Notes under the pieces: generated by a model
Told to the model about the DNA's origin: nothing
Seen by the model: the letters and a program-made list of their open reading frames with translations, nothing else
Database searches by the model: none
Source of the DNA: Eledone cirrhosa
Lineage: Eukaryota
Direction of reading: 5' to 3'
DNA: 64,000 nucleotides
Assembly: GCA_964016885.1 (NCBI GenBank)
Contig: OZ024743.1
Coordinates: 157,418,001-157,482,000 of the forward strand
Shown here: piece by piece, positions 15,890 through 47,200 of the stretch
Layout: each line of letters opens with the position of its first letter
Numbering within the stretch: the first letter of the stretch is position 1
Program-made: the position numbers and the translations under genes

Positions 15890-16077
15890 CGCGTAACTGC
15901 GCTCATCGATAGAGCGTCGGACAACATACTTGGCAGCAAAGAGTTACGGCCCTTTATTGTTTGAGTTCAAATCCCGCTGAGGTTTACTTTGCCTTTCATC
16001 CTTACGGGGTCGATAAAATAAAGTACCAAACATCCACTGGGATAATTGCTGGTCTTGTGCCAAAAGTAGAAACAATT
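15890..16077 (+). mobile_element. SINE family 1, diverged, with TTA tail
   Basis: B box GAGTTCAAATCC, ggggtcgataaaataaagtacc core, and the 3' end cttgtgccaaaagtagaaacaattatt. Confidence 0.8.
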
Positions 16078-16091
16078 ATTATTATTATTAT

Positions 16092-16300
16092 GGGGGTGGA
16101 TTGGGAGTATTGGTACAGAGTCAGACACCATGCTTTGCAGCACAGAGTTACGGTCCTTTACGGTCTGAGTTCAAATCCCGCCGAGGTTAACTTTGTATTG
16201 CATCATTACGGGGTCGATAAATAAAGCACCAGTAACGTACTGGGGTGGACTTAATCGACTTTCCCCTCCCCCAAATGTCTTTGTGCCTATGCTAGAAATC
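16092..16300 (+). mobile_element. SINE family 1 variant sitting in the TTA tail of the previous SINE
   Basis: Same head and core; ends tttgtgcctatgctagaaatc followed by (ATT)n. Confidence 0.82.
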
Positions 16301-16316
16301 ATTATTATTATTATTG

Positions 16317-18794
16317 TTCTTTGAGTCTCAGTCATTGATGTTAGTTAACTGGAAAGTTTGTTGAAATGAATAGCAAGCCAGTACTTGCAGCCTCAGATAT
16401 TCAGGACGTATCGGAGGGTTCTTGCTGTTCCCAGCAAGCATGCCTTTTGAAGCGTTCCAAAAAGCGTGGCGGGGCCAATTTTCTTTAACCATCCCTGGAA
16501 ACTTTTTGAGATAGTACCTAGTGCGCCTATGACAATCGGGACCACTTTGACCTCATGGCAGTTCCAAATCCTTTTTACCTCCCAATTTAAATCCTGGTAT
16601 CGGTTAATATTCTCCCTCTCCTTCTCTTGCACTCTCGTGTCGAATGGGCAGGCCACATCGACAATCAGGCACAATCTGTTTTCCTTGTCCAAAAACACCA
16701 GGTCAGGTCTATTGTGTTCCAGTTTCTTGTCCGTCTGTAACCTAAAATCCCATAGCACCTTCACCTGATCGTTTTCTATCACCGACTCTGGCTTATGCTC
16801 ATACCACTTCTCAGAATGTGGTAAATTGTTTACTTTGCATAGGTGCCAGTGGATAACCCTGCCCATCACATCATGTCTCCAGCCTTTATAGTGAGTCTGG
16901 GCTAGGTGTTTACACTCGGATACAATGTGAGCCACAGTCTCCTCTCTTTCTCCACATATCCTGCACAGTGGGCTAGCCTCCTCCTTGTAAATATGGTGTT
17001 TTAGCCACTTCATTTTGAGGGCCTGCTCTTGTGCAGCCATTAACATTCCTTCTGTAGCCTTTTTAAGGTCTCCTCTTTTCAACCAGTTCCATGTCTGTGG
17101 ATCTCTGAAATCCGTTTTCTCAAAGAAGGTACTATGAAGGGATTTTTCATGAAGTTTGCTCTTTCTCCTCGTTGTTATTTCCTCCTTGGACATCCCTTGG
17201 ACATCAGTACAATTTCTGAGCATTGGCTCCTTACTATCGGTCACGTATTTGTGTAGGTTGTTTTTCTCCATCTGAACACAGTCCTCTATGCTGATAAGAC
17301 CTCTTCCACCTTCAGATCTCCTTAAGTAGAGTCTAGCGATATCACTCCTCTTGTGGAACATGTTGTAGATAGTCAATAGCTTCCTAGTCTTCCTATCCAT
17401 TTCTTTTTGTTCAGCAACATTCCATCTCAGAATCCCCGTACTGTACCTAATAATAGACACAGCTCGGGAATTTACTGCACTTATGGCATTCCTAATGTTC
17501 AGATGTGACTTTAATACGCTCCTTACTCTCCGAATGTATTTTAGATCTTATCAATTCCTTCCTTTTTTTGTTCTTGATTTCATCAGCCTCGAGAATACCC
17601 AAATACTTGTGTCCTTCTTCAGTGTCAATTTCCTTTATCATCTCACCTGTTGGTGCCTGGATTCCGTTGCCTCTGCTCAATTTACCCTTCTTCATCACAA
17701 GTACTCCACACTTACTAATACCAAATTGCATACATATATCATTGCTGAAAATACGGAGAGTGTCAACAAACACATCCAACTCCTTCTCATTTTTCCCGAA
17801 GAGCTTAAGATCGTCCATGAAGAAGAGGTGATTGATAGTAAGCTCTCCCTTTCCCAACCTGTATCCTGCTCTCATTTTTCGTAGTATAATGGTCAGGGGC
17901 ATCAGAGCAAGGACAAACAACAGAGGGGACAGACTATCTCCCTGGAAGATACCTCTCTTGATCGTGACGCCTCCCAAGGATTCTCCAGCGGATGTTAACT
18001 TTGTTTTCAAGGAGTTCATACTTTTGCTCAACAACTGTCTGATGTTATCTGCCACCTTGAAGATCTCTAGGCTTTTGGTGATCCAAGAATGAGGCACCAT
18101 GTCAAATGCCTTTTTGTAGTCTATCCATCCCATGGCAAGACCAGTGTGTCTCCTCTTGCAAATTCCTCATTACCATCTTATCAATAAGTAACTGGTCCTT
18201 TGTACCACAGGACTTCTTTCGGCATCCTTTCTGTTCGTCCGGTAACAAGTTGTTTGTGTGGTGGTGATGGTAGATTTCCTCAGACACAATGCTTGTCAAC
18301 AGTTTCCACATTACGGACAGATATGTCTTAGGTCTATAGTTGGTAACATCATTACGCTTGATTCGGTCTTTCATTATCAGAACTGTGGTACCACTCTGAT
18401 ATCTCACCTGACATCAAGCAGTCATTGAACATGGCTGTCAGTTTCGGGTGGAGGGATCTTACTTTGTAATCCAATACCCCTGCACACCATCTGGGCCTGG
18501 TGATTTCCAGTTGGTTAGTTTTTTGGCCTGCCCCTTGAGAGTTTCAACTGTGATACTCAAATCAGCTTGTTGGTGTGCCTGTTCACTAATCTCCTTTTGT
18601 ACTGTCTCAATCCACACTGCCTGGTCATTATGTTTAACATCCTGCTCCCATATTCCTCTCCAGAATGTCTTAGTTTGTTCCGCCTCAGAGATCAAGTCGT
18701 TGCCTATTTCTTTCCCTTCAAGCTGTCCAAACAACATCTTCTGGTTGTTGTCAAACATTCGGTTCTGTCTATACTGACTGACTCTGCTCCCGTA
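16317..18794 (-). mobile_element. R4/Dong family A copy, 5'-truncated and frameshifted
   Basis: RT (KSPGPDG, YRP, WIDYKKAFD, GIFQGDSLSP, FMDD), CRICGEREETVAHIVSEC, RHD, RPD..D...P, RYQDL; TAA repeats on both sides. Confidence 0.92.
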
Positions 18795-45291: not shown

Positions 45292-45546
45292 CACAGGTAT
45301 ATGATCTGTCTTACTGAGTCTAAATTTCATCTATGCCATATATGCACAACTTATTGGAAGCCTGTCTCCAACAATTTACTATATTAAGTTGTGATTCAAG
45401 TATTGCCGTCAGCATTTACAATACTCTCATCATCATCATTGTTTAACGTCCATCTTCCTCGCTTGCATGGGTTTGGACGGGAGTTTTCCCACTGCTCGTA
45501 TAGGACTCTTATTATTATTATTATTATTATTATTATTATTATTATT

Positions 45547-45757
45547 AGGGTGGTGGATTGGCACTATTGGTAGAGCGTCGGACGACATCTTTTGTAGCAT
45601 AGATTCACTGACCTTAACGTGCTGATTTCAATTCCCGCCGATGTTAGCTTTGTCTTTAATCGTTACGGGATCAATAAAATACACCAGTAATGCACTGAGG
45701 TCTGTTTAATCCACTTTCGACTCCCCTAAAATTGCTGGTCTTCTGCCTATATTAAAA
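45547..45757 (+). mobile_element. SINE family 1 variant, degenerate, flanked by TTA repeats
   Basis: gggtggtggattggcactattggtagagcgtcggac head and matching core; (ATT)n upstream at 45510-45546 and downstream. Confidence 0.8.
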
Positions 45758-45782
45758 ATTATTGTTATTATTATTGTTACTT

Positions 45783-47200
45783 GGTCTGTCAAGGCGCATG
45801 TCAATATCGCCCCGTACGTTTTGCTAATTTTCAAGTGTCTACATTGCATTCTGCGATATTTGGGTTACAAATAGTTAATATGGGGCCACACCTTACCCTG
45901 TGTTAAGGCAATCCATTAATATTTTGGCCTTTGAGCCCAAACAATTGAACTTTATTAAAAAAATTATCGTAAAAGTAAACATGGACGAACCACGCTGCCC
46001 TAGGTTATGTCTGCTGTCGTGTGGCGGTGGCTTAACGTTAAGGAGGAAAACGCAGCCCCTTCCACAACAATGTTGAACTATAACCCCACCCTAGGCAGTA
46101 TTACCAACACCAGAACCAACAAAAACTACAACAGTGAGAACACTAACTGAAGAAAAATGACAACACCAACAACAGCAGCAACAGTGACAACCAAAACACA
46201 GACGACAGAAACAACGGCAACAAGGAAACAAGGCAAGAGAGCAACGACAGCAATACAAACTTCACCGAGAACAACAACAGCAGCACTAAGAATAACACAA
46301 ACAGCAACAGCAACTACAGCAACACCACCACCACCAATAACACCCCCAAAAACAACAACATTTACAACAACAAAAACAAAAACAACGACAACAATAACAT
46401 CACCAACAACAAGAATACATTCGCTGCCGCGTCAGCCCAAAAGAGGCCATACTTCAGCATGGGCTGCTAGAAAAACAAAAAGTTGACTCAGATCTGGAAG
46501 CTCGTCAAACAAGAGTAAACTTGGTCCAACTTAACTGTTCCAGGGGAACCTTAGAAGCAATGGAGAGAAGAACGCTGCATTTCAGATGCATTTCAGCCCA
46601 GACGAAAAAATCTGTAATAGTTACCCAAGTCAAAATTGAAGTTGCGCTGAAACGCATCATGGATGACACCGAGTACATAGCGATGAGCAGACAATACGGC
46701 ACCATTTCGCTGCTATTTAAGTCGGAAGCTCTCGCTATAAAACACACGATGACAAACTTTCGACAGGGTCGACCATCGATCCCTGGGAGGCTATTCTCAA
46801 GGCAGCTGGCTTCGTTCCCGTCTTCAGAGGCTGGATCACTGCAATGCACAGTTTTATCTGCTTGGTAGTCAAATTACATGGCCGCCTTTCAGAACCTCTC
46901 TCGAGTTCTATAGAGGATCAGTGGTGGGCAAGTGCGACGCCGCACCCCGAGAGGCTCTGGGCGTCGAAAAAGTCAAAATGACCAGTCTGTTCTGGATAAA
47001 TTTCGAGCCGGAGTCGATGAACAACTTCCAGAAATCCATCGCTTGGAAGTGCTGCCATAAGGTACTGCCGGTTTGAAATAAACTCTACAGGCACAACAGT
47101 GCTGTTAGAGGGACCTGTCCGAGATGCGCGAAGAAACCGTTCTGCCCGCATTTGTCTGTACATGATTGAATTGTGGTGTTATGCCGAACAGATGTTATAT
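45783..47200 (+). mobile_element. Second, divergent Tx1-type element with large internal deletions
   Basis: 5' UTR, Thr-rich ORF1 start and QYGTI segment homologous to KYGTV; then jumps to an RT piece (FDRVDHR..AGF.PVFRGWI) at about 46757 and to the C-terminal piece (NNFQKS.AW.C..LPV) at about 46905. Confidence 0.75.

Follow-up and report, generated by a model that had tools for sequence, protein, structure and literature searches.

The window analysed here, 64,000 nucleotides (nt) of the Eledone cirrhosa assembly (C4:157,418,001-157,482,000 of a 3.0-Gb genome), holds a chain of retroelements: three short interspersed elements (SINEs), five Dong-like long interspersed elements (LINEs) of the restriction-like endonuclease (RLE) type on the minus strand, and two Tx1-like LINEs of the apurinic/apyrimidinic endonuclease (APE) type plus one Tx1 remnant on the plus strand. 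By self-comparison, tract scans and reading of the junctions, the order of the elements (SINE, SINE, DongA1, DongB1, Tx1a, DongB2, DongA2, Tx1b, DongA3 with an attached 218-nt piece, SINE, Tx1-2 remnant; Table 1), their strands and the tracts between them are those given by an earlier, sequence-only reading: between 16075 and 45775 each of the 11 junctions has ATT/TTA on the plus strand, the last of them imperfectly, and no chain junction has a tract on the AAT strand. Tracts of at least five pure units number just 27 in 800 kb sampled across the genome, so these are not there by chance. That reading had also noted that within the chain no element interrupts the open reading frame (ORF) of another, which holds, whereas elsewhere SINEs interrupt Tx1 and Dong ORFs, and that a Tx1/DongA tail-to-tail pair recurs at the window start; this pair is indeed present, as a separate two-element chain whose Tx1 is full length with an ATT tract at its 5' end. 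Chains of this kind, with Dong-like and Tx1-like elements in fixed opposite orientation in (ATT)n/(TAA)n, occur genome-wide and were likely built by one-by-one insertion into the tracts of earlier insertions.

Table 1. Elements and junction tracts of the window, with identity to the nearest other copy
Feature	Position	Strand	Remarks
SINE 1	15905-16074	+	5'-truncated; without 5' ATT tract; left end of chain; 91.7%
(ATT)5 junction tract	16075-16089	+	
SINE 2	16090-16300	+	86.6%
(ATT)5 junction tract	16301-16315	+	
DongA1, older RLE-type LINE	16316-18792	-	5'-truncated at about element position 2045; 94.9% over 1 kb
(TAT)5 junction tract	18793-18807	+	
DongB1, young RLE-type LINE	18808-23106	-	about 640 nt of 5' untranslated region (UTR) absent; 99.7%
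Imperfect ATT tract, about 25 units	23107-23182	+	
Tx1a, APE-type LINE	23183-28624	+	both ends present; element positions 4655-5035 deleted; 97.1%
(ATT)6 tract	28625-28642	+	Tx1/Dong tail to tail
DongB2, full length, ORF broken	28648-33522	-	includes 5' UTR 32879-33522; 97.5% to DongB1
ATT junction tract	33523-33555	+	
DongA2, full length, young	33556-38100	-	ORF of 559 aa + 581 aa around one stop; 99.9%
Short duplications of DongA 5' terminus + (ATT)6 + (ATT)34	38101-38247	+	
Tx1b, full length, young	38248-44143	+	ORF1 CCHC knuckle; ORF2 APE, reverse transcriptase, zf-RVT, frameshifted; 99.4%
ATT tract	44144-44183	+	Tx1/Dong tail to tail
DongA3, young	44184-45291	-	5'-truncated at element position 3438; 99.8%
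218-nt piece, likely captured	45292-45509	-	copy of C15 ~27,535,110-27,535,327; sense as DongA3
(TTA)13 tract	45509-45547	+	5' junction of the DongA3 chimeric insertion
SINE 3, old	45548-45755	+	80.9%
Imperfect ATT tract	45756-45775	+	
Tx1-2, decayed remnant, related Tx1 family	45776-47194	+	internally deleted; right end of chain; without 3' tract
Separate two-element chain	1-4574		Tx1(+) to 4284; ATT tract 4285-4341; DongA(-) 3' fragment 4342-4574

The ORF of DongB1 is split over two frames (250 aa and 984 aa) with reverse-transcriptase (RT), CCHC and PD..D..K motifs. The sequence at 32879-33522 continues in 28 of the 29 other DongB copies, the remaining one (L137) being truncated a few bases in; it is thus the DongB 5' UTR, which makes DongB2 full length and disposes of this stretch as an orphan DongA 5' piece. 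The missing parts of DongA1, DongB1 and DongA3 lie nowhere else in the window, and we also rejected the truncated Dongs as interrupted elements, their missing halves being absent downstream both here and in the extended regions described below. Tx1-2 is 70-76% identical to Tx1, in two pieces, and its depth is near that of single-copy sequence.

DongA and DongB are two families, with 39% amino-acid identity across the RT/RLE half. A domain search of both returns RVT_1 only and no APE; the RT is followed by a CCHC finger (CxxC..H...C) and then by a PD..D..K endonuclease (RPD...D....EK..KY), conserved in eight homologues, and the only PDB matches are R2 proteins, via the RLE region (E 2e-28). A single ORF with RT, CCHC finger and PD..D..K RLE, and without APE, is the architecture of the R4/Dong clade, although no named R4/Dong sequence is among the 120 homologues listed. 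The clade is described as having a diverged Myb/SANT-like N-terminal motif without zinc fingers (PMC7998251); the N-terminus here has a W(S/T)-rich motif common to the homologues, with no finger seen and no Myb match in a Pfam search. The hepatitis delta virus (HDV)-like 5' ribozyme reported for Bombyx Dong (PMC3774820) has no counterpart found here, either with an ad hoc descriptor, used without a positive control, or in Rfam. The first ~365 nt at the 5' ends of DongA2 and DongB2 (37745-38100 and 33160-33522) are 72-75% identical despite the low protein identity, and intermediate 5' ends occur in many copies, which suggests either 5'-end swapping or a conserved promoter. About 50 nt of the DongB 5' UTR (window ~22846-22896) match the SINE 3' end in sense orientation.

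Tx1 has a zinc knuckle in ORF1, a CCHC knuckle there being typical of Tx1, and Exo_endo_phos (APE), RVT_1 and zf-RVT domains in ORF2, which is the Tx1 architecture; its best PDB match is human L1 ORF2p (E 2e-52, vs 1e-21 for R2). The closest named relative is an Argonauta hians protein (68% identity), which makes an octopod host likely, and a homologue annotated "Transposon TX1 uncharacterized 149 kDa protein" (31% identity) is the sole named support for the clade. Taking architecture, target and this one named homologue together, the clade names R4/Dong and Tx1 are likely. A young Tx1 copy has an intact APE domain and an open 1195-aa ORF2. A second young Tx1 family (L196-L197, C1 ~178,627,471-178,633,503) has another 5' UTR and another ORF1 (715-aa open frame) with the same open 1195-aa ORF2, and likewise lies within ATT tracts. 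A sequencing run with another organism label contains DongB and Tx1 pieces of window 14500-34000 with few differences (e.g., 22 in 1,487 nt), so the young DongB and Tx1 families may be common to a related species.

The target and the polarity extend across the genome. Five sets of element ends were sampled (best matches for four ends, and the first 30 exact C1 matches for the DongA 3' end), the window's own copies being excluded and the expected tract sought within 30 nt; most of these anchors are young copies on C1-C4. The expected tract was present at 144 of 146 ends, the opposite tract at none, and two ends had neither: Tx1 3' 29/29, Tx1 5' (full length) 29/29, DongB 3' 29/29, DongA 5' 28/29 and DongA 3' 29/30. 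Dong thus has (TAA)n, in the sense of the element, at both ends, as the R4/Dong target demands, and Tx1 lies far above the 20% of flanks used to call a target preference (PMC4494074). Across the tract from these ends, compared with a library of the window families and one further Tx1 5' region, we found Tx1 or Dong in window polarity at 92, SINE at 8, opposite-oriented matches at 3 and no library match at 43. The claim that an APE-type and an RLE-type element share one target in opposite orientation is thereby borne out, and genomic copies are for the most part ATT-flanked and fixed, rather than random, in orientation relative to the tract. Genome-wide, ATTATT comes next in 6,311 of 7,127 Tx1 3' 19-mers, a single DongA 3' 32-mer has 2,854 matches, and in 30 of 30 copies the Tx1 3' end runs straight into (ATT)n, without poly(A). 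The 78 LINE 3' ends scored in 18 extended regions all have window polarity, which for the anchors follows from their selection. A Tx1(-)/DongA(+) pair some 15 kb to the left of the window sits on an AAT tract, so polarity is set by the tract and not by the chromosome. Truncated Dong 5' ends also have the expected tract, in 91 of 106 cases (the de-duplication behind this count merged some copies). At metagenome relatives of Tx1 (80 loci, 24-42% identity; most contigs end at the element) no (ATT)n/(TAA)n run of at least five units was found.

Chains of this kind are common. In an abundance sample of 40 fixed-position blocks, each 20 kb long and 35 of them on C1-C4, the window families (at least 80% identity) cover 30,524 of 800,000 bases (3.8%) in seven tract-linked loci, which extrapolates from these 800 kb to ~26,000 such loci per genome (95% interval 10,500-54,000). 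One unselected block (C5:40.00-40.02 Mb) holds a chain of eight scored LINEs; all eight regions extended around DongA anchors contain at least two elements; a chain at C1:129.62-129.66 Mb is 29 kb long; and at C1:37.1-37.2 Mb a stretch of 110 kb, picked for its cluster of Tx1 ends, consists mostly of same-polarity chains. On C1, 30 of 99 consecutive Tx1 ends are no more than 15 kb apart (2.6 expected), of which 29 agree in strand, and a Tx1 end is found no more than 15 kb from 18 of 39 DongA ends (2.0 expected), with window polarity in 17; Tx1 and DongA ends are thus about tenfold above the Poisson expectation, with matching strands. Multi-element chains probably number in the thousands, and since equal or longer ones exist elsewhere, the window chain is a long but ordinary member.

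Within a chain, the ages of neighbours differ. The oldest parts of the window chain are its two ends, and young DongB1 lies between the older DongA1 and Tx1a (Table 1). Among 31 Tx1/Dong tail-to-tail pairs, the younger partner is Tx1 in 22 and Dong in 4, with 4 of similar age and 1 not scored, a count in which the anchors favour young Tx1; since either class can be the younger, each inserts beside older copies of the other. These differing ages, together with the differing truncation points, support one-by-one insertion into junction tracts. In a simple model in which each insertion adds one equal target, adjacency would equal the share of occupied seed tracts: the observed values, 92/146 (0.63) vs 7/18 (0.39), do not differ significantly (Fisher p = 0.07) and fit this model, with a weak hint that junction tracts are hotter.

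The SINE is present in the chain as a loose passenger, and a possible seed, whose preference for ATT is weak. At its 3' end there are just one to three ATT units; an ATTATT-type word lies directly upstream of 28 of 63 near-full-length SINEs and the opposite word of 3, and many copies have short target duplications starting with ATT. In three Tx1 copies (C1:127.98, 129.6 and 37.1 Mb) a SINE lies at the same ORF1 site (element position ~1918-1935, window ~40165-40182) with differing 5' junctions, so that this site looks like a SINE hot spot and not like one inherited insertion.

What had been called a short spacer at 45292-45509 is present, yet it is no plain spacer. Elsewhere in the genome, positions 45292-45426 are matched once only, with 100% identity, on C15, and this match extends to the full 218 nt at 99.5%. 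The C15 site is the 3' end of an RT element (RVT_1), which we take from its motifs to be RTE-like, plus ~135 nt of downstream flank, and lies behind a gene with an RNA recognition motif (RRM_1) and a glycine/arginine-rich region, presumably nucleolin-like. Because the piece copies this site, it forms with DongA3 a single ATT-flanked insertion, and the two, in the same sense, share no more than 1 nt of microhomology at their join. A jump of the Dong RT onto a read-through transcript likely added the piece, R2 RT being known to switch between templates in vitro (PMC4117753); alternatively, it may have been captured from DNA. Contigs that run left from 45292 with other sequence, tried as an empty-site allele, are explained by the C15 donor site. 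Two further elements of the window lie outside ATT tracts: a broken Penelope-like element at 5001-7100 (plus strand), with RT-like frames and a weak GIY-YIG match, and a broken RT-bearing LINE at ~12400-14800 (minus strand), presumably RTE-like.

How could such chains form? In target-primed reverse transcription, priming takes place on the (TTA)n strand if (TAA)n follows the element, and on the (AAT)n strand if (ATT)n does. Dong would accordingly nick and prime on the T-rich strand and Tx1 on the A-rich strand, a choice of opposite strands that we infer to be made by the two endonucleases themselves. Each insertion would split one tract into two, via target duplication and slippage, so that k elements would offer k + 1 targets and growth would come mainly from inside; growth within tracts would spare the ORFs. 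Free ATT microsatellites and SINE tails would serve as seeds, the SINE would be carried along through its weak preference, unequal recombination would add units to some chains, and the last Dong copy would have jumped templates at the C15 transcript. One-by-one insertion in this manner is the reading we hold to be likely for what is observed, namely tracts at either end of the elements, fixed polarity, clustered copies, and mixed ages and truncation points. Of the self-feeding proposed earlier, insertion beside older elements in both directions stands, while the tracts lie at both ends and not at the new tail alone; the self-extending array, too, probably grows by insertion, but it is genome-wide and not a property of this locus, and tandem duplication also contributes to some chains. 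More tentatively, the two endonuclease classes might split the two strands of the microsatellite between them and feed each other, with longer, purer and hotter tracts and growth beyond one target per insertion, so that ~4% of the 3-Gb genome would lie in polarised, non-nesting interstitial arrays that explain part of the octopus transposable element (TE) hotspots.

Several observations weigh against one-by-one insertion as the whole account. Truncated Tx1 5' ends have the expected tract in just 5 of 16 cases, with the opposite tract in 1 and none in 10 (de-duplication again merged some copies), and at four of the exceptions Dong and Tx1 are fused directly, with no tract between them. The young C1-C4 anchors bias the counts of age order and of adjacency. 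At C1:55.42-55.46 Mb a unit of Tx1 and identically truncated DongB is repeated at 99.0% identity over 13 kb, and the public contigs, assembled from short reads, do not span the window chain, whose contiguity is as given in the assembly. As for the fusions (L014, L023, L183, L215-L216), a truncated Dong and a truncated Tx1 are joined head to head, probably after a deletion that spanned the junction. Three loci (L052, L164, L167), two of which lack the expected tract on the 5' side, have a short Tx1 3' piece that begins at element position 5640-5642 and is possibly a non-autonomous derivative.

The main alternative for Tx1 places its strand choice in its RNA: the (AUU)n end would anneal to any nicked A-rich strand, the nicks coming from breaks in slipped tracts or from the second-strand cut of Dong, and Tx1 would partly hitchhike on Dong. 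The direct run of Tx1 into (ATT)n without poly(A), the preponderance of Tx1 as the younger partner, the short Tx1 3' pieces at non-ATT or opposite tracts (L034, L154, L164, L167), and a SINE that with its short ATT tail has the same polarity at loose targets all agree with it. However, the APE domain is intact in the young Tx1 with the open ORF2, Tx1 also sits in tracts without a recognisable neighbour (12/29 3' ends, 9/29 5' ends), related Tx1 families target other microsatellites (PMC4494074), and the age bias comes partly from choosing young Tx1 anchors; we regard the RNA-pairing mechanism as unlikely.

Chains could instead arise mainly from local duplication, by unequal crossing-over of copies or tracts, or from co-mobilised composite units. 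Local duplication does lengthen some chains: beside the repeat at C1:55.42-55.46 Mb, two Tx1 pieces at C1:45.777 Mb share a truncation point, and DongA2 and DongA3 of the window are 99.6% identical. Yet each of these two has a distant copy that matches it no less well (99.9% and 99.8%), most adjacent same-family copies in the window resemble some distant copy more than their neighbour, the other window copies differ (DongA1/A2 92.2%, DongB1/B2 97.5%, Tx1a/b 97.1%) as do their truncation points, and the order of families varies between chains, so that duplication as the main source is very improbable. The tandem itself (C1:55,423,000-55,456,000) comprises five ~99% identical Tx1 copies, two of them followed by the same truncated DongB, and is either a local duplication or a mis-assembly.

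Less probable still is that the tracts are merely tails made by the elements, with the clustering due to permissive chromatin or relaxed selection. Of the 27 tracts of at least five pure units, 16 lie at the end of a LINE, 3 have a SINE as sole neighbour and 8 are free, so elements do make or lengthen tracts; but the tracts are found at 5' ends as well, including those of truncated Dongs, elements adjoin across them without nesting, and young copies lie against older neighbours of the other class. An assembly artefact, with repeats joined at ATT tracts, would fit public contigs that do not span the chain but is scarcely credible, given copies that diverge from one another and have truncations and deletions of their own, the same architecture in the unselected C5 block, and unique flanking pieces that match public contigs with 0-4 differences.

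In essence, Dong targeting of TAA and the sharing of a repeat in opposite orientation were known already; ATT is, as far as our literature searches reach, a new target for a Tx1-like element, and the chains add a case of APE and RLE enzymes on one target with opposite polarity. One-by-one insertion would provide a countable mechanism by which a large animal genome acquires LINE-dense blocks without nesting. Some young copies have open ORFs, so strand-specific cleavage is directly testable. In Octopus vulgaris, Dong-R4 is reported as the largest recently active LINE group and L1-Tx1 as among the most active, and TE hotspots are described, in the available portion of that report, without mechanism or target analysis (PMC13282606); the chain model can therefore be tested on public assemblies. 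Neither a Tx1 family targeting ATT nor chains mixing Dong with Tx1 turned up in these searches, though Kojima and Fujiwara (2004), Repbase or supplements may contain such a family.

Four known systems invite comparison. Dong of the R4/Dong clade (Bombyx, Anopheles, Biomphalaria, Darwinula) combines an RT with an RLE and targets (TAA)n in insects, molluscs and cnidarians (PMC7998251, PMC3812793), as do the elements here, which differ in that two Dong families share their tracts with a Tx1 family in long mixed chains. Tx1 families occupy other microsatellites, namely Kibi (TC)n, Koshi (TTC)n and crocodilian Tx1 (TTCC/TTTC)n (PMC4494074); the present Tx1 is likewise an APE-type LINE in a microsatellite, but its target is (ATT)n, held in common with an RLE element. 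Keno (APE, Tx1 clade) and Utopia (RLE) converge on U2 small nuclear RNA genes (PMC4640811), a pairing of the same two classes on one target, although at a gene site, whereas here a microsatellite persists on both sides of the insertion and the classes face opposite ways. SART and TRAS form arrays in opposite orientations in the short telomeric repeat of Bombyx (PMC10088271), and the earlier likening to a telomeric array holds to this extent: two families in opposite orientation in one repeat, here interstitial. It fails in that SART and TRAS are both R1 families in telomeric repeats, while the chains, estimated in the thousands, combine APE and RLE classes in an ATT repeat, with the window at 157 Mb of a 379-Mb contig; they work like a SART/TRAS-type array without being a member. 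Overall, the chains are a genome-wide variant of known microsatellite targeting, neither a unique locus nor a new class of system.

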